A stretch of DNA of 64,000 nt, taken from the NCBI GenBank assembly GCA_050943115.1, contig JBMNON010000001.1, forward strand, positions 50,023-114,022, in the 5' to 3' direction. A model generated the notes under the pieces. It saw only the letters and a program-made list of their open reading frames with translations, did no database searches and was not told the origin of the DNA. This DNA comes from Patescibacteria group bacterium. GTDB taxonomy: Bacteria > Patescibacteriota > Microgenomatia > UBA12405. The translations under genes and the position numbers were made by a program. Numbering within the stretch: the stretch's first letter is position 1; every line of letters begins with the position of its first letter. Below, one piece after another: positions 1-43,196 of the stretch.

Positions 1-840
1 ATCGTAAAAACTACCATTATTGACATCCGCCGGGAACATCCAAAATTATGGCTGCGTTTTTCTGGGGAAGATGCCTTTAGGACAGAAATCTCAAGTCTTT
101 TTAATGTTTACGATCAAATTGCTGACCTTGTAGACACGATCGGCACTCCCGATACCACCGGCACTGCTACCCCAAAAACAGTAGCCCAAAGAGTCCGCGA
201 CCTCAAAACCCGCTACCCTAAAGTCAATCTTGAATGCCACTTTCACAACGATCTCGGCTTGGCTACAGCCAACACTCTGGCAGCAGTTGAAAACGGAGCC
301 GAGTTTGTCGATTCAACCGTTTGGGGCCTGGCTGAAAGATCTGGGATTACTTCTGTCACCGCCGCCCTAATTAATTTTTCCTACCTTGATCCAAAAATCC
401 TAGACAACTACAAAACAGAATTATGTTACCCCCTGAATGTTCTTATGGCTTCAATTCTAAAAATCCAAGTTCCCTGGTACGAACCGGTCTCCCTAACCAA
501 CAGAACCCATATCGCCGGTGTCCACCAAAAAGCCGTCCTGGCCAAACAAGGTTACGAAGCCCATCATCTGGATAAATTTGGAGTGATAACTGACCAGCTG
601 CTTCTTGGCCCTTTAAGCGGTTGGAACTTTATCCATTATTATCTCAAAGAGATTCTAAATTACATCGTCACCGAAGAACAGACCAAAGAAATTGCCGTCG
701 AATTCAAAAACCGCCAAAGTAAAACCAAAAAATCTATTGAACCGGAAAAACTTCTCAATCAAATAGCCATAGAATACAACTTGGTGAAAATTAGCATCCC
801 TGAAAAATTCGCCAAAACTCGCATTGAAAAACTGGACTGA
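1..840 (+). CDS. DRE-TIM metallolyase, 2-isopropylmalate/homocitrate synthase family (5'-partial, continues upstream of window)
   Basis: Frame 1 is open from nt 1. DTIGTPDTTG and HFHNDLGLATANTLAAVENGAEFVDSTVWGLAERSGI match the HMGL-like metal-binding motifs, and THIAGVHQKAV is the LeuA/NifV-type post-barrel motif. Confidence 0.6.
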   Translation: MVKTTIIDIRREHPKLWLRFSGEDAFRTEISSLFNVYDQIADLVDTIGTPDTTGTATPKTVAQRVRDLKTRYPKVNLECHFHNDLGLATANTLAAVENGAEFVDSTVWGLAERSGITSVTAALINFSYLDPKILDNYKTELCYPLNVLMASILKIQVPWYEPVSLTNRTHIAGVHQKAVLAKQGYEAHHLDKFGVITDQLLLGPLSGWNFIHYYLKEILNYIVTEEQTKEIAVEFKNRQSKTKKSIEPEKLLNQIAIEYNLVKISIPEKFAKTRIEKLD

Positions 841-911
841 AAGTTCAAGATCTCACCTTATTCTTATCTCTTTTTGTCTTAATACTTACTTAAAAGGTAT
901 ATTTTGAAAGC

Positions 912-1325
912 ATGAAAACATTAATTCTCTCCATAATTTTACCGCTCATCATATTAAGTTTTTCAAAAACTGCTCTGGCCGCTCCTTTTAAAGCCGCCGA
1001 CAAAAACCAGCAAATTGTTGCTTTTTACGAAGAAGGCACCCATGGTATCCCTGGCCAAACCTATACCCACGAAGGTAAAGATGTAGTCATGAAAGCCGGG
1101 GAAAGTCCAGTTGTCCAGCAATGGTTTGTCGGCACTAGTCAGGAAGAAGGATTCCATGGTGAGCATAGTGTCTGGAAGCTGTCAAAAGACGGTACTTGCC
1201 CTCCAAACTGGTTTAAAATGATAGTCACTGGGCCGGAAGGAAACAACTATTGGGGTGATGTTATGGAACCCGGAGCCACCTACTGCATCCACACCAGTCA
1301 GTTTCTCCAAGGGCAAAACCAATAA
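912..1325 (+). CDS. secreted hypothetical protein (N-terminal Sec signal peptide, cleavage near ALA-AP)
   Basis: ORF with N-terminal hydrophobic h-region MKTLILSIILPLIILSFSKTALA; no family recognised. Confidence 0.4.
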   Translation: MKTLILSIILPLIILSFSKTALAAPFKAADKNQQIVAFYEEGTHGIPGQTYTHEGKDVVMKAGESPVVQQWFVGTSQEEGFHGEHSVWKLSKDGTCPPNWFKMIVTGPEGNNYWGDVMEPGATYCIHTSQFLQGQNQ

Positions 1326-1376
1326 AAGCTGATTCATTCCCCAAATCACCAACGAGATAGTATACTGTTATTTACC

Positions 1377-1772
1377 ATGTCAAAACCCAACTACCCTCTT
1401 GCAGTCCTTGTTTTTATCCTTACTCTTGTAATCTTCACCATCCTCGGCCTTGCACTTTCCCGAAACAATCAAAATCTTCCACCGACAAACCAGCTCCCGA
1501 CGGACAACAGTCCCACACCAACTGCTATTGAAGCTAATTTTAATGAATCCGGTAACTTAATCAAAGAAAATGATTCCTGGAATTTCCTTTATGAAGAACC
1601 CGGTCAACCGGCTTTAAAAGTTTCTCTTAACTTTACCGGCGAAAGCCGCTGCGACATCTCCGGTTCTGTTGTTGAATGTGACGATGTAAACATAGAAACC
1701 GGTGCTCGGGCTATGGTAAAAGGCGACAAAATCGGCAATATAGTCACAGTTTACAACCTAATAAGCTTTTAA
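1377..1772 (+). CDS. hypothetical membrane-anchored/secreted protein
   Basis: ORF with N-terminal TM helix; Pro/Thr-rich segment then Cys-containing domain. Confidence 0.35.
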   Translation: MSKPNYPLAVLVFILTLVIFTILGLALSRNNQNLPPTNQLPTDNSPTPTAIEANFNESGNLIKENDSWNFLYEEPGQPALKVSLNFTGESRCDISGSVVECDDVNIETGARAMVKGDKIGNIVTVYNLISF

Positions 1773-2635
1773 GAAATATCTTCGGTATCTGACTCGTTAT
1801 TAGATATATGCTTCATCACTATCATATATCTGGACCATGTATAGTCACCAACTTCATCATTACCCTCCTCCCCCGGAACTCTCCATCCACAAAAAACTAC
1901 TACCAGATACTTCTCCTTTATCCTCTGCTCTGCTTGGGCATAATTCATTAGCGCTTTGGCATCACTCATAAATTCCCCTACTCCTTCAGGTGGAATTCTT
2001 ACCAAGTTCACCACTGAAAAATTTTCCCTATTTTCCTTTTGGACAAACTCTATTTCAGCCCTCATGATTAAATCAGCTCTTCTTTTTCTTTCATCTTCAT
2101 TAAATATATTTCCAAATAGCGACACTCCGCCCTCCAGAAAACTCCTCAAAGGCTCAGCCTCCAAAGGTATAGAATTTTTACTGCCACTATGCATTGCAAC
2201 CAGTGTGTAATCCTCTGTGTCCAAAGTAAATGCCCTACCGTCACCAGCTTTATATAATTCACCGACATCCGAAATTCCTTCAACATAAGGACTGGGAATA
2301 AATCCTATTTCAATACAACTCCCATCTTCCACCCTCACTATTCCTTGAACTTTTTCTTTGAATGACAAATTTATTTCACCAAAAACATATGGTTGTGACA
2401 TTTCTAATCCCGCAGATGGGACTATCACCGCACGCGGCTCATCATCAATGGGCTTTTTGCCAACCTCAATTGTAGGTACAGCTTTGGTATCATTGATAAT
2501 TCTCGAAATAGCTTCAGTACTTTCAGGCCCTGGGTTTTTATAGTTGTCTCCAGCACCACATGCAGACGCAGCCACACCTAGCACACTTAAAGCACTTATT
2601 TTTAAAAAATCTCTTCTGCCAAGTAATCTTTCCAT
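1769..2635 (-). CDS. Tat-signal lipoprotein, hypothetical
   Basis: MERLLGRRDFLKISALSVLGVAASACG carries a twin-arginine motif RRDFLK plus a lipobox-like ASAC. Confidence 0.45.
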   Translation of the reverse strand: MERLLGRRDFLKISALSVLGVAASACGAGDNYKNPGPESTEAISRIINDTKAVPTIEVGKKPIDDEPRAVIVPSAGLEMSQPYVFGEINLSFKEKVQGIVRVEDGSCIEIGFIPSPYVEGISDVGELYKAGDGRAFTLDTEDYTLVAMHSGSKNSIPLEAEPLRSFLEGGVSLFGNIFNEDERKRRADLIMRAEIEFVQKENRENFSVVNLVRIPPEGVGEFMSDAKALMNYAQAEQRIKEKYLVVVFCGWRVPGEEGNDEVGDYTWSRYMIVMKHISNNESDTEDIS

Positions 2636-2797
2636 AATTCATTTTTAAAATTAATTTAAAAATGAATTATGGAAATAACTTCAAACCACCCTTCAGGGAA
2701 CATAACACACAAACCTGTGCATCGCTGTTCCCCGAAGGAGGTGTTGGAGGGAATTTGGCACATCAATGTGCTTCCTTCCCTCCTCCCGAGAGATCCA

Positions 2798-3481
2798 CTA
2801 TGTTTCGTGCCGCCGCCCGGAACCATAGCCATACAAGTACCCGAAGAATGCTCCCAAGGCCATTGCTAGGAGAATAATAATTGCCATTTGGCAATCATTA
2901 TCCACACCACCCCCTGTAGGAATCAGTGGGATTGGTGTTGCCGTTAAAGTCGGCTGTTCCGGCGTCTCTGTCGGAGTGACTGGCGTAGCTGTCGGTGTCA
3001 CTGGAGTCGAAGTCGGCGTCATCGGCGTTGACGTTGGTGTCGGCTCCTCCGGCGTGCTCGTAGGAACTGGCGTTTCCGTCGGCTTCACGGGCGTTTCGGT
3101 AGGCACCGGAGTCTCAGTTGGCACCTCTGGTGTACTGGTCGGAGTCATTGTAGGGATCGGGCACTTGCATGTCCACGAAACGACAATGTGCGATATGTCT
3201 TGGCAGGCACTCGAATTGTCTTTCTCCCACACTCTCCAACCGGAATCATCCCAGGAAAACCCGAAACACTCGTTCGGACTACCTTGGTATTGTCCGGCCT
3301 TGATCTGAACGAAAGCTGACTCCACCCCATGTTCACAGTCAAACGATCCAGATTTCTCCGAATCGCTATCATTCCACTCGATCTTAACGGATCCGCCTCC
3401 ACAGGTTTCTGCTACAACCCACAAAGGGGTTGAAGCCAGAACCGTAACCAAAACGATCAACAAAAAGACTCTCCACTTCAT
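2798..3481 (-). CDS. GC-rich cassette: secreted Cys-domain protein with TP-repeat linker and C-terminal sortase-like sorting signal
   Basis: Start chosen at MKWRVFLL (ATG at 3481-3479) preceded by AAGGGAGGTCTGAA SD. Signal peptide, long TPTSTPEVPTETPVPTETPV... repeats, then LIPTGGG + hydrophobic helix + RRHET tail. Local GC is clearly above the window mean. Confidence 0.55.
   Translation of the reverse strand: MKWRVFLLIVLVTVLASTPLWVVAETCGGGSVKIEWNDSDSEKSGSFDCEHGVESAFVQIKAGQYQGSPNECFGFSWDDSGWRVWEKDNSSACQDISHIVVSWTCKCPIPTMTPTSTPEVPTETPVPTETPVKPTETPVPTSTPEEPTPTSTPMTPTSTPVTPTATPVTPTETPEQPTLTATPIPLIPTGGGVDNDCQMAIIILLAMALGAFFGYLYGYGSGRRHET
2925..3165. repeat. tandem low-complexity repeats encoding Thr-Pro-(Glu/Val/Ser) linker
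   Basis: Reiterated ggcgt/ggtgt/cggag units on the + strand; the opposite strand encodes PT(E/S/V)TP repeats. Confidence 0.5.
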
Positions 3482-3887
3482 TTCAGACCTCCCTTTCCTG
3501 TTCGTGTGAAGTATATTATCGGCCATCATTCTCACCACTATGGCAAGAATGTTTAACAAGGTTAGTTGCCAAGGGGCGGCAACTCTACAACAGATGGGGG
3601 TTAAAAGGGGTAATATATCCAAAAGGGACACTACCGGCAAATTTTACCGGCACTATCCCTCCTGGATATTTGATCTCTCGGATTGTTAAAGAACTATAAT
3701 CCACCCTCATTGATTAGCAATTAACCAAAAGTGGGAACTATAATACGACATTATAGGTTTTAATAGCTTAAAAGTCAATCACTTGATAGCCACTTTCCAC
3801 CATTCCTTGAAGCAAAATTCCAAAAATGTTATTCTTAAGAATAGATATCCTTGTTTGTGCCTTGATAATTACAAATTTTGATTTTAC

Positions 3888-4196
3888 ATGAACATACTCA
3901 TAACCGGCGACAATGTTGATATCACCCCCGAAATTAAAGAATTGGTTGATGAAAAAATTGACACCAAGCTCGACCCCCACCTCGCCCATTTCGCTCCGGA
4001 AATCAAAACTGCTGCCCTTAAAATCAGTCGTCAAACCAAAACAGGAAATTTCGAAGTTAATTTAGATATGATGTTGCCTGGAAAAATGCATGTTTACGCC
4101 AAAGCCGCCAATTCCCGTCTCGATTCAGCTCTTATTGACCTTAGGGAGCAAATAGAACGTCAGATTGAAAAATATAAAGCCGATCTAAGGCGATAA
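3888..4196 (+). CDS. hpf: ribosome hibernation promoting factor (short HPF/RaiA family)
   Basis: MNILITGDNVDITPEIKELVDEKIDTKL...IDLREQIERQIEKYK fits the YfiA/HPF pattern at about 100 aa. Confidence 0.75.
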   Translation: MNILITGDNVDITPEIKELVDEKIDTKLDPHLAHFAPEIKTAALKISRQTKTGNFEVNLDMMLPGKMHVYAKAANSRLDSALIDLREQIERQIEKYKADLRR

Positions 4197-4238
4197 CTGT
4201 AATTGCAATTTGCCCTTGCCTCACCTATAATACAGCCT

Positions 4239-4418
4239 ATGGCTAAAGCAAAAAAGACACCCAGAATATTAATCGCCCTAAACTGTGCTAAATGCGGCGC
4301 CCAAAATTATCTGAGTGAGAAAAATAGAACCAACACTACTGACAAGCTCAAATTCACCAAGTATTGTCGCTGGTGCAAAACCCGTACCGAACATCGGGAA
4401 TCTACCAAGCTCAAGTAA
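4239..4418 (+). CDS. rpmG: 50S ribosomal protein L33 (zinc-ribbon type)
   Basis: MAKAKKTPRILIALNCAKCGAQNYLSEKNRTNTTDKLKFTKYCRWCKTRTEHRE shows the C..C...C..C L33 signature. Start moved to the internal MAK. Confidence 0.8.
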   Translation: MAKAKKTPRILIALNCAKCGAQNYLSEKNRTNTTDKLKFTKYCRWCKTRTEHRESTKLK

Positions 4419-5464
4419 TGGTCCAAACTGAATCGCTTATTTCCGCCCTGGAAAATATCTACATCTCCCCTTTAGAGCAATGTAACTTGAACTGCAAGTA
4501 CTGCTACACTCACAAAACAAAAAATGTCCTTTCTAATAAACAAATATTAAACTTCGTCCGTGTTTATGGATCATTTTTAAAAAGTTACAGCCGCAAATTT
4601 TTGACAATCTCTCAACTCGGCAACGGACTTGACGGAGGCCAAAAATTTTGTGGCAAGACTGAAAATTCCCCTCGCTACAATAAATACATATCAAATTCTT
4701 TCAACACAAGTGCTTTTGACAGTCTTCAACGCCAAAACATTGACCAGCCCCAAAAACACCTCACCCAAAAGAATACATTATCCCTAAAATCCATCCTTTT
4801 TTGCGGCGGAGAAGTATTTCTTCTCCCTGACTTCCCTCCTCTGGTCAACCAACTTATCTCTCAAGGCATTTTTATTACCATCATCACCAACGGCACTATC
4901 GACCGGCTCTCCGAAATTAAAGACCCAACCAATTGTCAGCTATTAGTCTCCCTCGACGGACCCGAAAAAATCCACGATCAAAACCGAGGTTTGGGTAATT
5001 TTCAAAAGAGTAAAATTTTTATTCGTAATGCACTTAAATTAGGCTTTCCAGTGGAAATTATGTATCTCATAAGTTCCGCCTCTTACCCTTACAGAGACTC
5101 GTTTAACCTCTTTGATTTGCCCAAAACTTATCTTACAGACCGCCTTCATTCACTCGCTCCGGACCAAACCCTGAATATCAAAAAAAACTATCCTACCTAC
5201 CCCGCCAAAAACTTCGGTTGCTTTCAGCTGGCTTTGCAATCCGATACTTATATCTACGGTTGTTGCGAATCCTCAAAGTCCCTCGCCCGAATGTCTGATC
5301 CGCCCTCACGGATAATCGACAACTTCATCAATGCCCTCAAACCCTGCTCCCTCTGCTCCAATAAACAATGTCTGGGTTGCGTTGACCCCAGATACCTTTG
5401 TAGTTACAATTCCGAACTTTCCCAACAAAATTGCCAAAATGTTGTAAAATCTTTTACCCAATGA
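4418..5464 (+). CDS. radical SAM protein with SPASM/twitch-like C-terminal Cys cluster
   Basis: CNLNCKYCY (CxxxCxxC) at residue ~22, GGE motif FCGGEVFLL, C-terminal YGCC...CSLCSNKQCLGC. ATG at 4418 overlaps the rpmG stop (TAATG). Confidence 0.7.
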   Translation: MVQTESLISALENIYISPLEQCNLNCKYCYTHKTKNVLSNKQILNFVRVYGSFLKSYSRKFLTISQLGNGLDGGQKFCGKTENSPRYNKYISNSFNTSAFDSLQRQNIDQPQKHLTQKNTLSLKSILFCGGEVFLLPDFPPLVNQLISQGIFITIITNGTIDRLSEIKDPTNCQLLVSLDGPEKIHDQNRGLGNFQKSKIFIRNALKLGFPVEIMYLISSASYPYRDSFNLFDLPKTYLTDRLHSLAPDQTLNIKKNYPTYPAKNFGCFQLALQSDTYIYGCCESSKSLARMSDPPSRIIDNFINALKPCSLCSNKQCLGCVDPRYLCSYNSELSQQNCQNVVKSFTQ

Positions 5465-6483
5465 ATCAAAAATTTCAATCCCAATTTATCAAGGAATGGA
5501 CAATCCAGCTTGCAAGGGATTTTTTCCTGTCCCGGCACTTTCACGAGGTTGAAACTCCTACTCTCATGCCCCGGATTCCCATCGAACCCAATCTCTACCC
5601 GCTCAAAACCACTTGGGTCGAAAGAAAGCTTGATTTCTACCTGGCTACCTCGCCTGAAAGTTCTCTAAAAAAGTTAATCGCGGATGGTCTTGGCAACTGT
5701 TTTGCCATCAGCAAAGTCTTTCGTGATTTAGAAAATATAGGACCTACTCACAATCTGGAATTTTCCATGCTCGAATGGTATGAAATGGGCAAAACCTATC
5801 ATGATATCGCTCTAACTACTCAAAAATTACTAATACATGTTTACAATGGAATCCAAAATATATTAGGAATCTGCAATAACAATATACTCAACTACCAGGA
5901 TAACATAATTGATCTTAGCCCACCTTGGCACGAATATATCATGACTGATCTTTTTAAAAAATATGCGGATATGGATTTAAGCCAAAATTTAACCACCCAA
6001 AAGCTTAAAACCACCGCCCAAAAAAAAGGTTACAACACCGAAGGTGTTGACTCCTGGGAACCACTCTACACTCAAATATTTATTAACGAAATCGAATCCC
6101 GTCTTCCCATGGACAAACCCGTTATTATCTATGATTTTCCAACTCGCCAATCCCCCCTTTGCCAACCCTGTCCCAATTCCACCACCTTCTCTCAACGTTT
6201 TGAGTTTTATATCGGGGGCATGGAAATTGGCAATGCCTACACTGAATTGACAGACGCCAAGACCTTGGAAAAAAACTTTAAAAAAGAGGCTGCCTACCGC
6301 AAAAACCACTCCCTCCCCCTCCACCCTCCCGATGAAAAATTTGTTGAGGCCATTGGCCGTTTACCCCCCTGCGCCGGTATCGGACTGGGCGTCGACCGTC
6401 TAGCCATGCTTCTTGCCAATACATCCAATATCGAGGATGTTCTCTACTTCCCCACCTCCAAACTTATTTCTGACTCTAATTAG
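5461..6483 (+). CDS. epmA: EF-P--(R)-beta-lysine ligase EpmA/GenX-like (class II LysRS catalytic core, no anticodon domain)
   Basis: FHEVETPTL, ATSPESSLKKLIADGLGNCF, HNLEFSMLEWY (motif 2), RFEFYIGGMEIGNAYTELTD, LPLHPPDEKFVEAIGRLPPCAGIGLGVDRLAML (motif 3) align closely with E. coli EpmA. ATG at 5461 overlaps the rSAM stop (ATGA). Confidence 0.75.
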   Translation: MNQKFQSQFIKEWTIQLARDFFLSRHFHEVETPTLMPRIPIEPNLYPLKTTWVERKLDFYLATSPESSLKKLIADGLGNCFAISKVFRDLENIGPTHNLEFSMLEWYEMGKTYHDIALTTQKLLIHVYNGIQNILGICNNNILNYQDNIIDLSPPWHEYIMTDLFKKYADMDLSQNLTTQKLKTTAQKKGYNTEGVDSWEPLYTQIFINEIESRLPMDKPVIIYDFPTRQSPLCQPCPNSTTFSQRFEFYIGGMEIGNAYTELTDAKTLEKNFKKEAAYRKNHSLPLHPPDEKFVEAIGRLPPCAGIGLGVDRLAMLLANTSNIEDVLYFPTSKLISDSN

Positions 6484-7205
6484 CTTATCTTACTTGCCAA
6501 AACTCTAGCCGCCACCACAACTTCCTCACAGGCTGTTCTCTCTGCTGCCCTTCTTAAAACTTTTGAATACTTTCGCCTGGCTACCCAGGAACTAATTTCC
6601 GCCAATGGATACATATCAACAAAATACAATTTATTGCTTCCGTCTTCCACTACAAAATTTCTGAACTCGTCATGCGCCCGGTGAACACCTCCCAACAAAT
6701 CCGGCAAAACTGGATAACCTGCCTCTTTTTTTGTAACTTCGGCCATCTTGGTGCACCTTTCCAAAAAATAAGCCAATTGACTTCCCACATTGGCACTCAA
6801 CCTCCTCATCTCCGAAAGCGGTTGCCCCTTTATCCAATCCATAGAAATAATACAAACACAACCCGATGCCCATCTGGGATCGTCAACCACTTTCATTTCA
6901 CAACTCGGAATCATATTGTCAAGCCCCCACCTCTCGTCCTTAAGAAAATTAATACTTCTCCCCACTAGCCTTTCGTAATCTGATTTTTCCGGTATGCAGC
7001 TAAAGCCGCTTCCTGGCAAGTCGGGCAAATTAGTTACCTGTTTATGAACCCTGCCCTCTTTAGGGACCAAAACCATCGTATTCAAACCCATCTCTATCGT
7101 TCCCACAATGTATTCTACAACATTACCCCAAGGCTTGATAAAATAAAACAATATGACAAAAACAACTGAAAATAACCAACACCAACCGGAGCCCGCCCTA
7201 CCCAA
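6480..7205 (-). CDS. protein-kinase-like fold protein (Kdo/WaaP/KdkA-like), start uncertain
   Basis: HRAHDEFRNFVVEDGSNKLYFVDMY resembles a kinase catalytic loop plus a metal-binding D; the N-terminus is hydrophobic. Confidence 0.3.
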   Translation of the reverse strand: MGRAGSGWCWLFSVVFVILFYFIKPWGNVVEYIVGTIEMGLNTMVLVPKEGRVHKQVTNLPDLPGSGFSCIPEKSDYERLVGRSINFLKDERWGLDNMIPSCEMKVVDDPRWASGCVCIISMDWIKGQPLSEMRRLSANVGSQLAYFLERCTKMAEVTKKEAGYPVLPDLLGGVHRAHDEFRNFVVEDGSNKLYFVDMYPLAEISSWVARRKYSKVLRRAAERTACEEVVVAARVLASKIS

Positions 7206-7300
7206 GCGGCCCCCGATTCCTCAAATCCATCAAAAACCTTCTTTTGGCAATAAATCGTTCAACCGTACTTTCAACACACACAACCGTGGCCGCCGCTGAC

Positions 7301-8443
7301 TTATATCTTCTTCAATATATTCAATAGCTTGCCGTTAATCTTGTCCGGAGTAAAAACCTGCTTCATCCTATCCCTTACCTTGCCGCTTACTTCCTGGCGA
7401 TTAATTTCTCCGACCTTTTTATATACTTGAGCTGTCGACCTAAAATCTACCACCCAATCTTTTAAACCTAATTTTTTGAAAGTTTCTGCCACCCCCATAT
7501 TGGAGCTAACCAGAGCCGGAGTTCCGCAGGCAACGGCCTCCTGAGCTACATTTCCGTAAGTCTCAAAAAATGAAGGGCTCAAAACTACCCCCATATTACC
7601 ATAGAATTTAGCCAACCTCTGGTTATTCATCGGTTTAATTAACTTAACAAAATTATACAAATCACCCACATCATTTTTAGCCTTCTTGGTATCAGTTACC
7701 ACGTTAATTCTAAACAAATCACCGCGTTTATGGTTATATCTAACCAACTTCTTCACAAAATTTGGATTTTTTATATTTGACCAACGGCTAACTAAACCGA
7801 CGTTTTTGGCAGAACCCCCCTTCTTAATATCAAAGAAATGTTCCGGCACCGGATTGGGCAGCACTGCCCCCTGGCAAATCTTATGGCCAAAAACTTCGTT
7901 TTCAACAGTCTCCTTAGCTAGTTCCGACGGAAAAACATAGAACAATCTATCGTTGTCAAATGTCTTCTCCATTTCATTTACCAGTTTTCTTGGTTTTTCG
8001 TCCATATGCTCTGTTTCTTTAGTCAATATTCCGTGATAATGCAAAACCATTGACTGATTATTCTTATTCGACCCGGCCATAAATAAACACCATGGTACAA
8101 AGTATGTACCATTTACCAAAATTACGTCCGGCTTTTCCTTTTTAATTACTTCTTTATAGGTATCTATCAACTCTTGATAAGAGTTTTTTATGTCTTCAAC
8201 ACTTTCGGAATCCTTCAGCACATCCGCAAACACCTTGCATTTTTTATTAACTTTAAGCAGCTCAAAATTCTTCTTATCTTCTTTGTAAATTCCACTTTCA
8301 CAAGCATTCGGCTCTCCGCAAATTTCCACCCCGACAATTTTAACCTTCTTCTTTGAATCACTTTCTACATAATTAACAAAATTGGAAAAAGTCTGTCCGA
8401 TTCCTCCTAGTGGATTAGTTTGAACATTGGTTAATATTTTCAT
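7301..8443 (-). CDS. glycosyltransferase, GT4 (GT-B fold)
   Basis: FFETYGNVAQEAVACGTPALVSSNMGVAE matches the GT4 E..G....EA.A.G.PV motif. Confidence 0.65.
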   Translation of the reverse strand: MKILTNVQTNPLGGIGQTFSNFVNYVESDSKKKVKIVGVEICGEPNACESGIYKEDKKNFELLKVNKKCKVFADVLKDSESVEDIKNSYQELIDTYKEVIKKEKPDVILVNGTYFVPWCLFMAGSNKNNQSMVLHYHGILTKETEHMDEKPRKLVNEMEKTFDNDRLFYVFPSELAKETVENEVFGHKICQGAVLPNPVPEHFFDIKKGGSAKNVGLVSRWSNIKNPNFVKKLVRYNHKRGDLFRINVVTDTKKAKNDVGDLYNFVKLIKPMNNQRLAKFYGNMGVVLSPSFFETYGNVAQEAVACGTPALVSSNMGVAETFKKLGLKDWVVDFRSTAQVYKKVGEINRQEVSGKVRDRMKQVFTPDKINGKLLNILKKI

Positions 8444-8694
8444 AAGAAATCTCCATTCAAAAAATTATAGGATAGACTTCTATTTTACCATACGTTCACT
8501 TTATGTCAAAACATACAATTATAGGATTATCCGCGTCTTCTTATCATTCTCTTACACTAAGCTTACTCTCCCCTTAAACTTTGACCGTATCCTTATTCTT
8601 GAAAGGCACAAATAAAAAACACCAAGGTGAACTCTACCCCGTTGTGGGTCATACAAATTCAGCACCTTGGTTTTTTTATGTTATATTAGATTTC

Positions 8695-10116
8695 ATGCCC
8701 CGCCAGCCAGACAAATTGGTCTTCGTTGATATCGAAACTACCGGCACTAATTCATTTCGGGATCGTATCATCGAAATTGCTGCCCTCAGGGTTGAAAACG
8801 GACAGCTAATCGATACCTTTACAACCCTTGTCAATCCTGAATGCCACATTTCTCCTTTCATCGCTCAATTTACCGGCATCTCAGAGAAGGATTTGGAGAC
8901 AGCCCCTACTTTTGCTGAAATTAAAGAAAGACTGGAAGAAATTTTGGAAGGCTGCATCTTTGTCGCCCATAATGCGCGCTTCGATTATTCCTTTGTTAAA
9001 CGCAATTTAAAATTCCTAGGCGCAACTTATACCGCCCCCACTCTATGTACCGTCAAGCTCTCTAGAAACCTCTTCCCCCAGTATCGTAAACATGACTTGG
9101 ACAGTCTTATTGCCCGGTTTAATTTCGAATGCCCTAACCGCCATCGGGCTTATGACGACGCCAAAGTTCTCTTGGATTTTTACAACTATATAACCAAAAA
9201 TATTTCATCAAAGATAAATCATCATGCCTTCAGTCAAATCCTCCAAAAGCCTTCGCTGCCACCACATCTTGATCAAGCCCAAATTGATAGTCTTGACCAA
9301 TCCCCCGGTGTTTACATTTTCTACGATTCAAGAAATAATCCCCTATACGTTGGTAAAAGTAAAAATCTTAAAACCCGCGTTCTCTCCCACTTCCAAAATG
9401 ACGTCAATTCCAACCGGGAACTCGCTTTATCCCAAGCCACTGCTTCCATCAAAACCATTCCTACCGCCGGTGAGCTTGGAGCTCTTCTGCTTGAGTCCCA
9501 ACTGATAAAAGAACTTCAGCCCACCCATAATAGGCTTCTTCGCCACCGCAAAAAAATAGTTCTGGCAAAACAAACAACTGATAACAACGGCTATTATTCT
9601 GTTATCTTAGAGCCGGTTAAACGCATAACTCTGGAAAATACTTCAACGCTTCTCTCAGTCTTCAAAAACCAAAAACAAGCCATCGAATCCCTGCACCAAA
9701 TCGCCAAAAATCATCAACTATGCCCCAAGATCCTAAATCTCGACAAAAACAAAAATGCCTGTTTTAACTACCATTTGGGATTATGTAAAGGTGCCTGCAT
9801 CCAAAAAGAGAAGCCCCTTTTCTACAATATCCGCTTCCTTGAAGCTTTTTCCAAAAGAATCCAACCATGGCCTTTTGACGGTCCTGTTATTATCACCGAT
9901 GTTAATCCTGAAAACGGGATTACCGATAAATTTCTGGTAAATTTTTGGTGCTACTTAGGCAAACTTGAAGCGGAAGAACACACTGTTGATGCCACATGCT
10001 CTCAAAATAATTTTGATTACGACACTTACAAAATCCTCAATCGTTTTATCAACTCAAATTCCAATCAGTCCGCAATTACACCCCTCACTGCCTCTATCAA
10101 TTCATTTGAAGAATAA
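8695..10116 (+). CDS. DnaQ-like 3'-5' exonuclease fused to GIY-YIG nuclease domain (Cho/UvrC N-terminal-like)
   Basis: LVFVDIETTG (Exo I), FVAHNARFDYSF (Exo II), HRAYDDAKVL (Exo III); then GVYIFYDSRNNPLYVGKSKNLKTRVLSHF is GIY-YIG. Start moved to MPRQ (8695). Confidence 0.65.
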   Translation: MPRQPDKLVFVDIETTGTNSFRDRIIEIAALRVENGQLIDTFTTLVNPECHISPFIAQFTGISEKDLETAPTFAEIKERLEEILEGCIFVAHNARFDYSFVKRNLKFLGATYTAPTLCTVKLSRNLFPQYRKHDLDSLIARFNFECPNRHRAYDDAKVLLDFYNYITKNISSKINHHAFSQILQKPSLPPHLDQAQIDSLDQSPGVYIFYDSRNNPLYVGKSKNLKTRVLSHFQNDVNSNRELALSQATASIKTIPTAGELGALLLESQLIKELQPTHNRLLRHRKKIVLAKQTTDNNGYYSVILEPVKRITLENTSTLLSVFKNQKQAIESLHQIAKNHQLCPKILNLDKNKNACFNYHLGLCKGACIQKEKPLFYNIRFLEAFSKRIQPWPFDGPVIITDVNPENGITDKFLVNFWCYLGKLEAEEHTVDATCSQNNFDYDTYKILNRFINSNSNQSAITPLTASINSFEE

Positions 10117-11372
10117 TAGGCATAAAGCTCCTGCTCCCAGCTTTTTGATCTAATGTCAATTACGGGGTCAACACCTTTACCCTCAATCGGCTGTCCGTCT
10201 TCTCTCAAAGTTAAGCTGTGAACCAGGAACATTGAATGTTTTTCATCATCGGCAATCTGCTGTTTTAACGGAAAAACCCTCTCCACGGTTCCCCATCCCT
10301 TGCTCTTTGTCCCCACCAAAACTCCGACGTTATACTTTTTCAGAGTAGCCGCCATTAATTCCGCAGTAGATTGGCTGTTTTCATTTATTAAAATTACCAC
10401 CTTTTTAAATCTCACCATGCTTTCCATCCAGCCTACTTTAGTCTTAAAATCCACCTTTTCTCCTTGGTGAAAAAACTGATAAGCATACTGGTCCATTCCG
10501 ATAAATGGTCCCAAGAAGTATGGCAGCTGATCTATTGCCCCACCGATATTATTCCTTAAATCAAAAATTAGGTTCTCGACCCCCGTTCTGTCACCCAATT
10601 TCCCCATCACCCTGTTCAGCTCCTCAAAAGTCGTTGGAGAAAACTTTGTTAAATGGACATAATAAGTACTGTTATTTACAAGTTTGTAATCCATCGTCGG
10701 TTCAATTCCGGAAATATCATAAACTTTTCTGGCCTCCTCGTCCTTTAGCACCTTATATGCTTCCTGGATTTGTGCAAACTTTTCTGCAGCCTCGGGGTCA
10801 TCATTCGTCTCCGGATCCCATTCGGCCGACTTTTCGTTAAATGCCTTATCAATTGCACTTTGGGATGCTTGTTTATCTACCCCCAAGGCCTCATAGCGAT
10901 CCTGTCCGGATCTATTGGTTACATTGTCGCTTAATTCTTTTTCCTCTTTTTGGGTATAAAGCCTACTCCGGCCGAAAGGTTCCAAATTTGACAAGACCAC
11001 ATCGGCCAAAGTAGCACTAAACTCCTTCCTTTTCTCATCGCTGTCATACTGGTCCAAGATATCCAGCAAAGCCTTATTCCAAGTCACCTTATTTACTTCT
11101 GTTAAATTTAACGGCTGTCCAGTTAACTTCTCGGCCCCTAGGATAAAAAAATTCAAAAGGTCCGGCTCCTCCATCTTATTCCAGTGATTCTCTTTTATCG
11201 TTTGGTAGACCTCGTCCAAAAATAATGCATACTTATTCTGGCTCACGCCTGCAATCTCAGGTTGTACATCGGTAGCTTTATTTTTATTTCCCAAAAAGTA
11301 CCCTGCCGCCCCCCCGATTCCCAAAACCAAAAACATCACCAAAATCAGGGGCAGTAATTTTTTCAAGCGCAT
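10065..11372 (-). CDS. membrane-anchored S41 C-terminal processing peptidase with J-domain-like insert in place of PDZ
   Basis: LIFDLRNNIGGAIDQ, VVILINENSQSTAELMAATL and GVLVGTKSKGWGTV are S41 motifs. N-terminal TM. Residues ~158-222, DRYEALGVDKQASQSAIDKAF...EKFAQIQEAYKVLKDEEARKVYD, resemble a DnaJ J-domain with HPD replaced by DPE. Confidence 0.7.
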   Translation of the reverse strand: MRLKKLLPLILVMFLVLGIGGAAGYFLGNKNKATDVQPEIAGVSQNKYALFLDEVYQTIKENHWNKMEEPDLLNFFILGAEKLTGQPLNLTEVNKVTWNKALLDILDQYDSDEKRKEFSATLADVVLSNLEPFGRSRLYTQKEEKELSDNVTNRSGQDRYEALGVDKQASQSAIDKAFNEKSAEWDPETNDDPEAAEKFAQIQEAYKVLKDEEARKVYDISGIEPTMDYKLVNNSTYYVHLTKFSPTTFEELNRVMGKLGDRTGVENLIFDLRNNIGGAIDQLPYFLGPFIGMDQYAYQFFHQGEKVDFKTKVGWMESMVRFKKVVILINENSQSTAELMAATLKKYNVGVLVGTKSKGWGTVERVFPLKQQIADDEKHSMFLVHSLTLREDGQPIEGKGVDPVIDIRSKSWEQELYAYYSSNELIEAVRGVIAD

Positions 11373-11425
11373 GTCTTAAGATAAGCTATTTTGACTCCCT
11401 TTTCCAGTCTCTGGTAAAACTATAT

Positions 11426-11944
11426 ATGGCTTTATTACTGATACTTATATTCCTCCTTCTTCTTTCTTTCGGCATTTTAGTTTATTTTTTCTATCGTCTC
11501 GTAATTGCTCCCGGTGCCATTTACTATCCCACCCCAACCCATGTGGTTAGAAGCATGCTCAACCTGGCCAAAATCGGCCCTAGCGACACTATTCTCGATC
11601 TTGGTTCCGGCGATGGTCGTATTCTTATCGAAGCCGCCAAGCGCGGTGCCCATGCCATTGGCTATGAAATTGACCCCCTCCTTGTCCGCCAAACCCGAAA
11701 GCTGGTCAAAAATGAGAATCTCTCCCATCTTGTTACCGTTCACAATAAAAATATGTGGCAGGCTGATTTTAATGATGCAACCGTTATTACTCTCTATCTT
11801 TTCCCCAATTTTATGAACCGGCTTCAAAAAAACCTCGAATCCCGTCTCAACCATAAAATCAAATTAGTCTCCCATAACTACCGCTTTCCTAAAAAAAGGG
11901 AAATAAGCAGTAAGGACAATATATATCTCTATTCTTTCCCCTAA
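11426..11944 (+). CDS. class I SAM-dependent methyltransferase with N-terminal TM helix
   Basis: TILDLGSGDGRILIEAAKRGAHAIGYEID is SAM-binding motif I; N-terminal MALLLILIFLLLLSFGILVYFF. Confidence 0.6.
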   Translation: MALLLILIFLLLLSFGILVYFFYRLVIAPGAIYYPTPTHVVRSMLNLAKIGPSDTILDLGSGDGRILIEAAKRGAHAIGYEIDPLLVRQTRKLVKNENLSHLVTVHNKNMWQADFNDATVITLYLFPNFMNRLQKNLESRLNHKIKLVSHNYRFPKKREISSKDNIYLYSFP

Positions 11945-11963
11945 TCCAGCGTATAATTACCCT

Positions 11964-12830
11964 GTGATTAACCAGCTCCGCTACCTTGTTTCCGCCTGCA
12001 AGCAACTCAGCATAAGCTATTCTTTTATCGACAACCATCAAAATCTCATTAAGATAAATACCCTGCCCAATGCCACTTATTTTATCAACTACACCACCCC
12101 GTTAAATACCTCCGATGTCGTTCGTATTTGTTCAGACAAAGACTTTACCATCCAACTCTTAAAATCCGTTATTCTTACCCCCAAAACTAAAAGCTATCTT
12201 GATCCTTCCTGCCCCGAAAAATACCGGCATTACCTAAAGCACCGAACTCCCGAAGAGATATGCAATGATATATTACTTAACTTCAGTCTACCCCTGATTC
12301 TAAAAAAAAATTCCGGCTCCCAAGGATCAAACGTTTTTCTTTGTCACACCCGAAAAGAAATCAAATCAGCCGCCAAAACTATCTTTGACCAAAAATCAAA
12401 GGAATATGACTATATCTTATTGGCTCAGGAATATATTCACCCCAAGACAGAGTACCGGGTGGTTGTCTGCCGGCAGCAAATTACCTTTGCCTACCAAAAA
12501 GATATCTCCCAAGCCTTGTTTACAGGTAATTTGAGCCCCCTCCACTGGCACAACGCCAAGGCCTTACTCTGCTCCGACACCAAACTTCTAACAAAATTCC
12601 AAAATTTTCTCTCCCCGATTTATTCTCTTCTGCCGTTATCTTTTGGTGGTATCGACATAATCGAAGATCAAAACAATAACCTTTGGCTTATCGAAATTAA
12701 TACCAACCCCGGTTTCGATTACTTCCTCCGCGATAACAGTCCCAAACCCCTTATCGACACCTATAAACGTATTCTCTCCGGCCTTATTCCTACAACTCAC
12801 ACCAAAGATCTTCAGTGTAAATCAAAGTAA
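11964..12830 (+). CDS. ATP-grasp ligase (RimK/GshB-like)
   Basis: LILKKNSGSQGSNVFLC, LAQEYI, EYRVVVC, FGGIDIIEDQNNNLWLIEINTNPGF follow the ATP-grasp motif order. Confidence 0.55.
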   Translation: MINQLRYLVSACKQLSISYSFIDNHQNLIKINTLPNATYFINYTTPLNTSDVVRICSDKDFTIQLLKSVILTPKTKSYLDPSCPEKYRHYLKHRTPEEICNDILLNFSLPLILKKNSGSQGSNVFLCHTRKEIKSAAKTIFDQKSKEYDYILLAQEYIHPKTEYRVVVCRQQITFAYQKDISQALFTGNLSPLHWHNAKALLCSDTKLLTKFQNFLSPIYSLLPLSFGGIDIIEDQNNNLWLIEINTNPGFDYFLRDNSPKPLIDTYKRILSGLIPTTHTKDLQCKSK

Positions 12831-41403: not shown

Positions 41404-42630
41404 GTGAAGCAAAAAATATCCATTGTATTTTTGAACTATCTTCGGATTCTCGCAAAAATCCAGCTTTTTAAGATCCGAATTATTCAGATTGCTAAAAAAC
41501 GTCCCCTCTGTATAATCGGGATCACTGGCTCAGCTGGTAAAACCTCCACCCTGTCTGCCCTCCATTCAGCCCTGTCGCCTCAATACCAAATAAAAACTAA
41601 TTCTGGTTCTAATTCCGAATCCGGTATTCCCCTGGACATTTTAGGTTTAAAGATCAAAGAATTCTCTCTTACAAGTTGGCTCAAAATCGCCCTCCTTTCC
41701 ATCTGGAAAATTCTTACAAACTGGCAAAGTTATCAAATATATATTGCCGAAATGGGAATTGATAGCCCTAAAGAGCCCAAAAATATGACTTACCTGTTAA
41801 AAATTTTTACACCCGACATCGGTATCTTTCTCAATGTTAGCCCTGTCCATTTGGAATATTTTGACAGTCTTGATCAAATCGCTTTGGAAAAGGCCAAAAT
41901 GATAGCATCCCTTCCATCCTCGGGTTTTGCCATTCTAAACCTTGAAGATCCTCTTGTGAAAAAATATGCCCAAAATACTCCCGCTCGAATAGTTCCCATC
42001 AAACCCGTCAAAATTAATTTCCCCGGCTTTATTATTCCTGATGTTTATCAGGATTCTTTTGGCGCGGCTATCGCCACAGCCCGGGTTCTTGGTATAAAAA
42101 CAGAAACGGCCACCATCAATATCATAAACAATTTTCGCCTCCCTCCCGGCCGTGCTTCCATTCTCCGCGGCCTTAATAATTCCACAATTATTGACAGTAC
42201 TTATAACGCTTCACCCTTGGCCGCTACTGAAATGCTAAACTTCCTCCGCAACTTCCCGCCCCCCCGAATTGCTGTCCTCGGAGACATGAGGGAGCTTGGA
42301 CAAGCCTCCCGGGAAGAACACCAAAAACTTTACACCAAAGCCATCAAATCAAGCGACCTTCTCATTAGTGTAGGTCCCCTAACTTGTAAGTACTTTGGAC
42401 CAAAAGCCCAAAAATTCGACTTTTGGTGGCAGGCAGCCGACTATATGAAAACCCATCTTCCCACCAACGCTACCGTCTTGGTTAAAGGCTCCCAGAATAC
42501 GATTTTCCTCGAAGAACTAGTCAAGTCTCTCCTCCAAAATCCTTCCGACAAACAACTCTTATGCCGCCAAAACAACTACTGGCAAAAAACCAAAAGTGCC
42601 TTTCGCAAATCCATCAAAAAACCCTCCTAG
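41404..42630 (+). CDS. Mur ligase family protein (MurF-like central plus C-terminal domains, no N-terminal domain)
   Basis: IGITGSAGKTST P-loop; IAEMGIDSP...IGIFLNVSPVHLEYF; IIDSTYNASPLAATEMLNFL; RIAVLGDMRELG. Confidence 0.6.
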   Translation: MKQKISIVFLNYLRILAKIQLFKIRIIQIAKKRPLCIIGITGSAGKTSTLSALHSALSPQYQIKTNSGSNSESGIPLDILGLKIKEFSLTSWLKIALLSIWKILTNWQSYQIYIAEMGIDSPKEPKNMTYLLKIFTPDIGIFLNVSPVHLEYFDSLDQIALEKAKMIASLPSSGFAILNLEDPLVKKYAQNTPARIVPIKPVKINFPGFIIPDVYQDSFGAAIATARVLGIKTETATINIINNFRLPPGRASILRGLNNSTIIDSTYNASPLAATEMLNFLRNFPPPRIAVLGDMRELGQASREEHQKLYTKAIKSSDLLISVGPLTCKYFGPKAQKFDFWWQAADYMKTHLPTNATVLVKGSQNTIFLEELVKSLLQNPSDKQLLCRQNNYWQKTKSAFRKSIKKPS

Positions 42631-43196
42631 GCCGAGTATTCTTTATCCTTCTTCATCTCTTTTTCAATCAAGTTTCTCAAAAACACTGATCTTGGCAGTC
42701 TCTTTTTCTTGGCCACCCAATCAAGATAGTTTAATATCTTGGGCGAAACAAAAAAGTTAAAACGGACATCGGCGCTTTTAATTGCCTCCTCAATGGCTTC
42801 TTCCAAGGCAGCCTCCACGTTACCCAGCTCATATTGAACAATTTGCATCTTGTCATAATCGGAACCAAAAAACAAACCTGGCTTCCGGTCTCCTGCAAAC
42901 AACACCACCAATGGCTTATTTAATGCCATGACTTCAGTCAATTCATGGCCGACTGACAAGCTTTGGGTTGACACCTCAGCCACGATTACTTGGGCTTTCT
43001 TAATTTCTGATATAATTTTTACGTAATTTTTCCTAGCTTCGGCTTTTGACAAACTATCAACACTTTGAGAACCGTCCTTTAAAATATGTTCCGAATACAC
43101 CTTATGCCCCATCTTGCTTAATACTCTTACAATTTCCTCATAATTTTCACTGAACTCTTTCTTTCCTCGGAGAGATGCGGTAAAATATATTCTCAT
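42627..43196 (-). CDS. DNPH1/Rcl-like 2'-deoxynucleoside 5'-phosphate N-hydrolase / nucleoside 2-deoxyribosyltransferase superfamily, with C-terminal extension
   Basis: MRIYFTASLRG and VIVAEVSTQSLSVGHELT match IYFCGSIRGG / AEVTQPSLGVGYELG of DNPH1. Confidence 0.5.
   Translation of the reverse strand: MRIYFTASLRGKKEFSENYEEIVRVLSKMGHKVYSEHILKDGSQSVDSLSKAEARKNYVKIISEIKKAQVIVAEVSTQSLSVGHELTEVMALNKPLVVLFAGDRKPGLFFGSDYDKMQIVQYELGNVEAALEEAIEEAIKSADVRFNFFVSPKILNYLDWVAKKKRLPRSVFLRNLIEKEMKKDKEYSA

Follow-up and report, generated by a model that had tools for sequence, protein, structure and literature searches.

What does a ligase of the EpmA/GenX family do when the radical S-adenosylmethionine (SAM) enzyme encoded next to it is not EpmB? 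This question is raised by a 64,000-nucleotide stretch of DNA from a Patescibacteria group bacterium (GenBank assembly GCA_050943115.1, contig JBMNON010000001.1, positions 50,023 to 114,022; the whole of this stretch is hereafter referred to as the window), in which the genes for ribosomal protein L33, a radical SAM protein (hereafter rSAM) and an EpmA/GenX-type ligase follow each other with overlapping codons. The rescue of ribosomes stalled on polyproline by elongation factor P (EF-P), or by its counterpart in eukaryotes and archaea, depends on a long modified side chain, and the known solutions for this side chain are few, namely beta-lysyl(-hydroxy)lysine, rhamnosyl-arginine, 5-aminopentanol and hypusine. 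The strategies known for EF-P itself are the beta-lysylation by EpmA, EpmB and EpmC, the rhamnosylation of Arg, the 5-aminopentanolylation, and the use of an unmodified EF-P of the PGKGP type. After analysis of the window and of related loci, we lean, on balance, toward the view that an EpmA-derived ligase and an rSAM of the SPASM/twitch clade together install a new modification, which may be a radical-dependent lysine adduct on EF-P or may be placed on a different acceptor.

Conservation of the rSAM-ligase gene pair

The open reading frames (ORFs) and the DNA of the window were read directly, and the protein families were assigned with use of Pfam and NCBIfam. The rpmG gene for the Cys-type ribosomal protein L33 (59 aa; PF00471, 58.8 bits; TIGR01023, 52.4 bits) is located at 4239-4418 on the forward strand, and its stop codon TAA at 4416-4418 has one base in common with the ATG at 4418 of the rSAM gene (4418-5464, forward strand; 348 aa; PF04055, 54 bits), thereby forming a TAATG overlap. 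The stop codon TGA of the rSAM gene at 5462-5464 in turn forms an ATGA overlap with the ATG at 5461 of the ligase gene (5461-6483, forward strand; 340 aa), which ends with the stop codon at 6481-6483. The order of the three genes and both overlaps, as described in an earlier note on the sequence of the window, were borne out by this direct reading, and the start codons proposed there fit the N-termini of the homologues in the alignments of both rSAM and ligase.

Using the rSAM profile, we fetched a total of 79 loci from species-representative genomes. An EpmA-like gene adjoins the rSAM gene in 74 of these loci, and the contig ends in the remaining 5. The ligase gene is usually downstream of the rSAM gene (divergently transcribed in 4 loci), and the stop and start codons of the two genes overlap in approximately half of the loci, including 12 with the exact ATGA-type 4-nt overlap. 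The pair is also adjacent in 5 further loci (L082, L085, L169, L171 and L172), and altogether it is present in about 85 loci of Microgenomates-type bacteria of the candidate phyla radiation (CPR). The surroundings of the pair are unrelated in L042, L055, L057, L066/L075 and L172: it stands beside gyrB and a small ferredoxin gene in L042, beside gatB, ruvA and ileS in L066/L075, and in L172 it is intact within a wholly different neighbourhood, with an rSAM just 34% identical to that of the window. Since the pair is kept in at least six unrelated contexts and down to 34% identity of the rSAM, we conclude that a genuine functional link exists. In all the loci with enough sequence, this rSAM family was accompanied by the ligase, and clustering of all neighbouring ORFs gave no further universally linked gene. 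The arrangement is thus far beyond chance, and the conserved linkage and translational coupling put forward in the earlier note are well supported by the adjacency and the overlapping codons.

The architectures of the two proteins also go together. The long ligases, which share 55% identity or more with that of the window, are always accompanied by rSAMs with 6-9 tail Cys after the CCES motif, and the rSAMs with only 2-3 tail Cys (twitch-like, about 250 aa) always by short ligases, referred to below as class 2, of about 250-290 aa that lack the insert separating motifs 2 and 3. The search of the protein database gave 496 homologues of the rSAM, and all those with an organism name are from CPR bacteria; at E<=1e-30, 24 cluster representatives were detected among 1.84 billion. 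The rSAM is described here as an uncharacterised, CPR-restricted family. Its distant relatives (about 100-140 bits) stand outside every curated family, and the edge of the linked family is marked by one of these relatives, P0421, which has no EpmA-like gene after it.

The L33 gene is located upstream of the rSAM gene in 66 loci and the HPF gene upstream in 69 of the 79 related loci, and their position ahead of the pair is confined to the Shapirobacteria-type synteny block. L33 is absent beside the pair in L042, L055, L066, L075 and L172. The adjacency of L33 is thus only a lineage-specific synteny, and its functional link to the rSAM-ligase pair, as raised in the earlier note, was not confirmed.

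Three minor observations were made on these loci. In L042, a 65-aa 4Fe-4S ferredoxin-like gene (L042:4714-4911, reverse strand) lies directly 3' of the ligase gene, and its product could donate electrons to the rSAM. An apparent 677-aa fusion of rSAM and ligase (L031:1309-3342) was rejected as an artefact of a masked run of N that joins the frames, and could pass for a Rosetta-stone fusion. The records of metagenome-assembled genomes for L001, L002, L005 and about 30 other loci, which originate from binchicken co-assemblies and are titled 'uncultured Gammaproteobacteria bacterium', carry typical Shapirobacteria/CPR loci, and these titles look like mislabelled taxonomy.

The ligase as a member of the EpmA family with a Gly gate

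The ligase matches tRNA-synt_2 of Pfam (PF00152) with 160.9 bits over residues 11-333, and the alignment of 35 ligases identified it as the catalytic core of a class II aminoacyl-tRNA synthetase, with motifs 1-3 and without an anticodon-binding domain. Its best NCBIfam model is TIGR00462 (genX), with 272.8 bits against a cut-off of 286.9, and the score for NF006828 is likewise below the cut-off (232.8 against 264). The ligase is 37-39% identical to canonical EpmA of CPR bacteria and 28% to lysyl-tRNA synthetase (LysRS) of CPR bacteria. In a neighbour-joining tree of 61 ligase and LysRS sequences with 60 bootstraps, the EpmA-type short ligases were split from LysRS in 60/60 bootstraps. Based on the tree split, the identities and the best match to genX, the ligase is an EpmA-family protein and not an independent truncation of LysRS; the source annotations are 'lysyl-tRNA synthetase' or 'hypothetical protein'. 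The residues of the lysine pocket, E240, E278, Y280, N424 and E428 (LysU numbering), are all kept, with F426 replaced by Tyr. Also retained are E103, H108 and R235, the EF-P-contact residues of PoxA that are essential for the aminoacylation of EF-P (PMC3950694). The ligase very probably works chemically like EpmA, forming an aminoacyl-adenylate and then transferring the aminoacyl group to a protein amine. Overall pI and net charge were tried as a class marker and rejected, as the ligase classes were not told apart.

At the position of A298 of E. coli EpmA, alignment with the E. coli protein places Gly308 of the ligase (codon GGA at 6382-6384, forward strand) within the sequence CAGIG-LGVDRL. 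Residue 298 was described as a binary switch, Ala directing EpmA to (R)-beta-lysine and the A298G substitution to (S)-alpha-lysine (bioRxiv 10.64898/2026.07.07.736966). Among the 69 rSAM-linked ligases, this gate is Gly in 63 and Ala in 3, with no match to the motif in 3, while the 56 other short EpmA-type ligases, drawn from 80 metagenome loci, carry Ala in 51, Gly in 5 and no other residue. All 15 full-length LysRS of the metagenome sample with the motif present have Gly. As many as 32 of the 51 Ala-gate ligases are encoded directly beside efp, and of the 5 exceptions with Gly, two are rSAM-linked, two are cut at the contig end and one is adjacent to efp. The metagenome sample contains besides one short ORF with a Ser gate, one short ORF without a match to the motif, and 4 Ala ORFs of at least 430 aa, which are over-extended calls of EpmA. 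The efp-adjacent exception is a third configuration of the system: on a metagenome contig of 30% GC (L090:2691-4342), efp overlaps the gene for a 365-aa Gly-gate EpmA-type ligase by 4 nt, and no rSAM gene is found near it.

The reversion of the Ala gate to the LysRS-type Gly indicates that the substrate is probably of the alpha-amino backbone, namely L-lysine or a lysine derivative. The idea of the earlier note that a different modified amino acid is supplied thus gains support from the gate. As to the assignment to the EpmA/GenX type, the tree placement and the catalytic core agree with it, and the curated cut-off and the Ala gate do not; because these two defining features are missing, the ligase should not simply be annotated as EpmA.

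The three Ala-gate ligases encoded beside an rSAM gene are of use for the history of the pair. Those of L066 and L075 cluster with the efp-adjacent EpmA of L086 (51% identity, 59/60 bootstraps), and that of L057 is basal to the Gly-gate rSAM-linked ligases, with which it forms a clade in 54/60 bootstraps. The rSAM is thereby tied historically to genuine EF-P ligases, and the order of events that this suggests is the association of the rSAM with an Ala-gate EpmA, followed later by the change to Gly.

The rSAM as a member of the SPASM/twitch clade

The CxxxCxxC motif for the radical SAM [4Fe-4S] cluster (C22, C26 and C29; codons at 4481-4504, forward strand) is invariant in 26 aligned homologues, and the GGE motif is located at residues 130-132. 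In Pfam, the rSAM matches the generic Radical_SAM domain alone, and no curated family cut-off was reached in the searches against the hidden Markov model libraries: the best curated NCBIfam family gave 46 bits against a cut-off of 380, and no model for KamA/EpmB is among the best 25 of 60 NCBIfam matches. The top matches among structural neighbours are SkfB, SuiB, anSME, BlsE, MoaA, TigE, ChlB, PqqE and CteB, and the profile search of PDB sequences gave BlsE, SkfB and anSME. No KamA fold was found for the rSAM, and its CxxxCxxC at residues 22-29 leaves no room for a KamA-like N-terminal domain. The rSAM therefore belongs to the SPASM/twitch clade and not to KamA/EpmB, in agreement with the earlier note, which had taken it as not KamA-like. 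Two lysines, K33 and K197, are invariant in the alignment, with nothing tying either of them to pyridoxal phosphate (PLP). A leader-recognition domain of the RRE/PqqD-like type was not detected by family match, and only 21 residues precede the Fe-S motif, too few to accommodate an RRE domain.

The C-terminal Cys-rich auxiliary-cluster domain is encoded at 5219-5434 (forward strand), and its cysteines are invariant or nearly so in the homologues. Its pattern, C268-x8-G277-x4-C282-C283 ... C310xxC313xxxxC318xxC321 ... C328 ... C339, is similar in the number of Cys to the reference SPASM/twitch motif, CX9-15GX4C ... CX2CX5CX3C ... C, but different in spacing. The Pfam SPASM model (PF13186) is unmatched at E<=0.1, the predicted local distance difference test score (pLDDT) of the structural model is low around residues 314-326, and the class-2 rSAMs of other loci have a tail with just 2-3 Cys left. 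Because of the missing Pfam match and the spacing off the canonical motif, the rSAM is to be called SPASM/twitch-like rather than a proven SPASM protein; the SPASM assignment in the earlier note stands as to the clade. The low-complexity insertion, estimated in that note at about 100 aa, is indeed present but shorter. It covers about 70 aa (approximately residues 52-122; 4571-4783, forward strand), is absent or of other length in the homologues, ranging from zero upwards, and is modelled as disordered at residues 67-117 (pLDDT below 50). The insertion is a non-conserved linker without functional signature.

EF-P and the canonical epmA in the lineage

No efp gene was found in the window. For the search of EF-P, the protein encoded beside the CPR-like canonical EpmA in L083 was used as the query. 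All the EF-P sequences recovered with the labels Microgenomates and Shapirobacteria were found to carry the loop FVSPGKGSAF, and the loop peptide TFVSPGKGSAFYR contains the PGKG lysine. The residue at the equivalent of position 34, singled out for checking in the earlier note, is therefore Lys in this lineage.

In L160-L164, L177 and L179, a separate canonical EpmA with the Ala gate (310-350 aa) is encoded immediately upstream of efp; the NCBI name for such efp-adjacent CPR homologues is 'EF-P lysine aminoacylase EpmA'. The gene order of the efp locus in Microgenomates is Lon-YkuD-[epmA]-efp-GT2-PMT2/GH8, where epmA is present in L161-L164, L177 and L083 but absent from the otherwise syntenic L165-L168: in L165 and L166 it is gone, with an 88-nt spacer in its place, and in L167 and L168 the contig starts with efp and has no epmA ahead of it. 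The loop of EF-P is identical with or without a neighbouring epmA. The absence of epmA from syntenic efp loci indicates that the canonical ligase is dispensable in some lineages. Among the hits listed for the rSAM, EF-P and canonical EpmA (up to 120 each), no contig was in common, a result without weight because EF-P of the long pair-bearing contigs is missing from the lists as well. The NCBI protein accession ranges point to different metagenome-assembled genomes, the assemblies of the long-contig rSAM hits P0057 and P0095 are not shared with those of the canonical EpmA hits P0270 and P0347, and the ENA samples with the longest contigs for EF-P P0187 and rSAM P0363 are of one accession series (ERZ272933xx) but do not overlap. 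A tblastn search of the efp-flanking genes against the window and all the loci gave no synteny bridge, and no KamA-type gene was found near any of the CPR epmA loci examined, the search being of the loci only.

A small basic ORF downstream of the ligase gene

A family of small basic ORFs (48-60 aa) was found downstream of the ligase gene, usually directly so, and on the same strand in 57 loci, including the window and L003, L006, L067 and L180-L189. The member in the window (7153-7299, forward strand; 48 aa, MTKTT...FNRTFNTHNRGRR; match to the family model with E=0.001) is separated from the ligase gene by a conserved convergent gene of 241 aa, while in the class-2 operons the small ORF overlaps the ligase stop codon by 4 nt and is annotated as a gene by the source. 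The family is without Pfam or NCBIfam match. It is rich in Pro at the centre and carries at the C-terminus the motif F-x-x-x-[NS]-[RK]-G-(RR or GGGK), ending in TINRGRR in the loci with long ligases and FRTQNRGGGGK in those with short ligases, and contains no invariant lysine and no Cys. No such small ORF was detected next to the pairs that are out of context (L042, L055, L066, L075 and L172). As judged from these features, its product may be a third component of the system or its acceptor, or the ORF may be just a member of the local translation-related synteny block.

The 241-aa gene (6480-7205, reverse strand) is convergent with the ligase gene, overlapping its stop codon by 4 nt, and at its 5' end it also overlaps the small ORF's start, on the opposite strand. 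It is 71% identical in L008 and 53% in L001, with no match in Pfam or NCBIfam. This conserved hypothetical gene is outside the rSAM-ligase module.

Proposed pathway and its alternatives

It is quite conceivable, if short of probable, that rSAM and ligase together form, in CPR bacteria of the Microgenomates type, an obligate two-enzyme module for protein modification, derived from EF-P beta-lysylation. With the same reserve, we tentatively propose a variant EF-P lysine-acylation pathway that has an alpha-type lysine substrate and an obligatory radical step. In this pathway, the ligase would adenylate L-lysine or an alpha-backbone lysine derivative, and would move the lysine-type group to a protein amine, most likely the lysine in the PGKG loop of EF-P. 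The rSAM would stand in the place of EpmB with other chemistry, making an unusual amino acid from lysine; alternatively, it may remodel the lysyl group after its attachment, as the anSME-type enzymes act on protein side chains. By analogy, the strictness of the co-occurrence of rSAM and ligase resembles that of EpmA and EpmB, unlike the optional EpmC step. Further points in favour of EF-P are the descent of the ligase from EpmA, the Ala-gate partners of the rSAM in L057, L066 and L075, the retained residues of the lysine pocket and of the contact with EF-P, the lysine loop of EF-P together with the loss of the canonical epmA in some relatives, and the Gly-gate ligase coupled to efp in L090. 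The gene linkage, the family assignments, the Gly gate and the Lys-type EF-P of the lineage are direct observations, whereas acceptor, amino acid and reaction of the rSAM are inferred from them.

Several points weigh against EF-P lysine acylation. In the 79 genome loci, tblastn gave no efp at a distance of up to 6 kb from the pair, nor did blastp or the gene tables show one in the 3-5 kb flanks of L082, L085, L169, L171 and L172; the canonical epmA is located beside efp in over half of the cases, but the pair never. Since related Microgenomates already own a canonical epmA-efp operon, the rSAM-linked ligase could be a replacement or else a second paralogue that serves a different acceptor: were the canonical ligase absent from the pair-bearing genomes, the pair would represent a replacement pathway for EF-P, and were it still present there, the Gly-gate ligase would have to serve some other function. 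The three EF-P-contact residues are conserved in LysRS as well, and thus give no proof of EF-P recognition. Furthermore, the short class-2 ligases lack the entire insertion between motifs 2 and 3, no computed feature identifies the reaction of the rSAM, and the conserved small ORF downstream offers an alternative acceptor.

This last point leads to the main rival explanation, which we consider rather unlikely, but to be taken seriously, in which the Gly-gate ligase is a neofunctionalised paralogue of EpmA and participates with the rSAM in the maturation of a small protein, most plausibly the product of the downstream ORF. The locus would then be a RiPP-like (peptide made on the ribosome and modified after translation) or ribosome-associated cassette, a version that we likewise judge rather unlikely, with the ligase lysylating a peptide amine and the rSAM cross-linking or modifying the peptide. 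The 57 loci with the small ORF, its 4-nt overlap with the ligase gene in class-2 operons and the variation of its C-terminal motif with the class of ligase and rSAM all fit such a role, as do the closest structural relatives of the rSAM, the majority of which mature peptides or proteins (SkfB, SuiB, anSME, PqqE and CteB-type), the presence of canonical epmA-efp operons in the same bacterial group and the location of the pair, never beside efp. On the other hand, the ORF was not detected at the five out-of-context loci and may be no more than a neighbour by synteny, as HPF and L33 are, an invariant lysine as the acceptor is lacking in it, the class-specific motif may merely track the organismal phylogeny, and the rSAM is devoid of an RRE or leader-binding domain; to our knowledge, no member of the EpmA family has an acceptor other than EF-P. 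A more conservative scheme is the plain replacement of EpmB, in which the rSAM would be a PLP-independent lysine 2,3-aminomutase and EF-P would carry the standard (R)-beta-lysyl group. Strict co-occurrence, often with adjacent genes, is known of classical EpmA and EpmB, the rSAMs of L057, L066 and L075 have Ala-gate EpmA of the canonical type as the partner, and KamA-type genes are lacking near the CPR epmA loci examined, all in favour of this scheme. We nevertheless consider it improbable, because 63 of the 69 partner ligases are Gly-gated and Gly abolishes the beta-lysine preference in E. coli EpmA, and because the N-terminus of the rSAM begins at the Fe-S motif without a KamA-like domain; all the 2,3-aminomutases of the KamA type known to us need PLP. 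The non-orthologous replacement of EpmB suggested in the earlier note thus agrees with the conserved pair and the non-KamA rSAM, and it is the plain beta-lysine version that is disfavoured by the Gly gate.

An action of the pair on L33 or another component of the ribosome is very improbable. In 66 loci, the L33 gene does directly precede the pair, in many cases with codons that overlap or abut, and is itself preceded by HPF, but these loci are largely one inherited synteny block, a Nudix-like gene intervenes between L33 and the pair in L057, the pair stays together without L33 or HPF in L042, L055, L066, L075 and L172, and L33 is without a feature like the acceptor loop of EF-P. Least credible of all is the absence of any functional link, that is, two unrelated housekeeping genes brought side by side by genome streamlining. 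CPR genomes are compact and overlaps of stop and start codons are common in them, but the adjacency was observed in both orientations and in the unrelated contexts described above, where rearrangements removed all the other neighbours, and the co-varying domain architectures and the constant presence of the ligase with this rSAM family also argue against mere streamlining.

Comparison with known systems

The nearest known system is EpmA-EpmB(-EpmC), acting on Lys34 of EF-P in E. coli and Salmonella, in which an EpmA/GenX ligase is likewise encoded with a radical SAM enzyme; the lysine pocket, motifs 1-3 and an EF-P with the PGKG lysine loop are all kept in the present lineage. The differences are that the rSAM herein described is of the SPASM/twitch type, whereas EpmB is a PLP-dependent aminomutase of the KamA type, and that the ligase has Gly for Ala298, is just under the genX cut-off and is never encoded beside efp. 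With class II LysRS, the ligase has in common the catalytic core, the gate Gly and the residues of the lysine pocket, but it differs in the lack of the anticodon-binding domain, the low identity of 28% and the complete split in the tree. The SPASM/twitch enzymes such as anSME, SkfB, SuiB, BlsE, MoaA and PqqE are structural neighbours of the rSAM with the same core of CxxxCxxC and GGE, but the rSAM is under all the family cut-offs, is not matched by Pfam SPASM and deviates in spacing from CX2CX5CX3C, and part of its family has just 2-3 tail Cys. We know of no description of an aminoacyl ligase as the partner gene for any of these enzymes. The RiPP cassettes with a radical SAM/SPASM enzyme (e.g., SCIFF-type) are alike in having a conserved small ORF near a SPASM/twitch enzyme, sometimes translationally coupled, but the small ORF of the present system follows an aminoacyl ligase gene, is without Cys and is missing beside the pair outside Shapirobacteria, and the locus has no leader-recognition domain, protease or exporter.

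The product of yfkA is known as a radical SAM protein. The 5-aminopentanolylation of EF-P in B. subtilis, with involvement of YmfI, GsaB and YnbB as well as YaaO, YfkA and YwlG, is a lineage-specific modification assembled stepwise on the protein, and its level is influenced by yfkA (PMC5885033, the text of which does not use the term radical SAM). This pathway is only a loose precedent for a lineage-dependent difference in the lysine modification of EF-P; it is without an EpmA-type ligase, YfkA is not encoded adjacent to a ligase, and YfkA is absent among the best 25 NCBIfam matches of the rSAM.

A review of January 2026 includes no radical SAM/SPASM route and no mention of Patescibacteria (PMC12856214). 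In the full-text literature, we found no prior description of EpmA or EF-P paired with a radical SAM/SPASM enzyme, or of EpmA/EF-P in Patescibacteria, and no NCBIfam model covers the rSAM. The pair may define a new solution for EF-P in a large uncultured bacterial radiation or, alternatively, may show the reuse of the EpmA scaffold for another protein. If the former is true, the radical-dependent lysine adduct would be a further type of EF-P modification; if the latter, this would be the first EpmA-family ligase recruited away from EF-P. Either way, the system is compact, with two or perhaps three genes, and expressible. As a natural Gly-gate variant of EpmA, the ligase bears on the engineering of EpmA for alpha/beta amino-acid chemistry, and a radical SAM family gains a defined partner gene.

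Other features of the window

Upstream of rpmG, the window contains the gene for the HPF/YfiA ribosome hibernation factor (3888-4196, forward strand; PF02482, 48.3 bits; TIGR00741, 41.8 bits), which belongs to the context only as a synteny partner. Between the two genes, a sigma-70-like promoter sequence, TTGCAA-17-TATAAT, was found at 4203-4231 (forward strand) by consensus match only. It is possible that the operon starts from this sequence; the number of promoter-like matches in the region (11 versus a mean of 8.2 for shuffled sequences) is not above that of the shuffles. No Rfam family was detected in positions 1-12000 of the window, and its only tRNA genes are located at 14.6-15.1 kb.

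A second rSAM of the SPASM/twitch clade is encoded at 43224-44231 (forward strand; 335 aa), with CxxxCxxC at residue 16 and scores under every curated cut-off, and its neighbours are a Mur-ligase-like gene (41404-42630) and a nucleoside 2-deoxyribosyltransferase-like gene (42627-43196). It was considered as a part of the present system and rejected, the identity being 30% over 98 aa only. At 11426-12830 (forward strand), a gene for a small SAM-dependent methyltransferase is followed by that for an ATP-grasp ligase of the RimK family (TIGR00768, 74.6 bits, under its cut-off), possibly a further pair for the tailoring of a protein or cofactor. Finally, the 280-aa ORF at 2798-3640 (reverse strand), which has a long repeat region rich in Thr and Pro (PTETPVPTETPVKPTETPVPTSTPEEPTPTSTP...) as well as a hydrophobic C-terminal segment, probably encodes a cell-surface protein.

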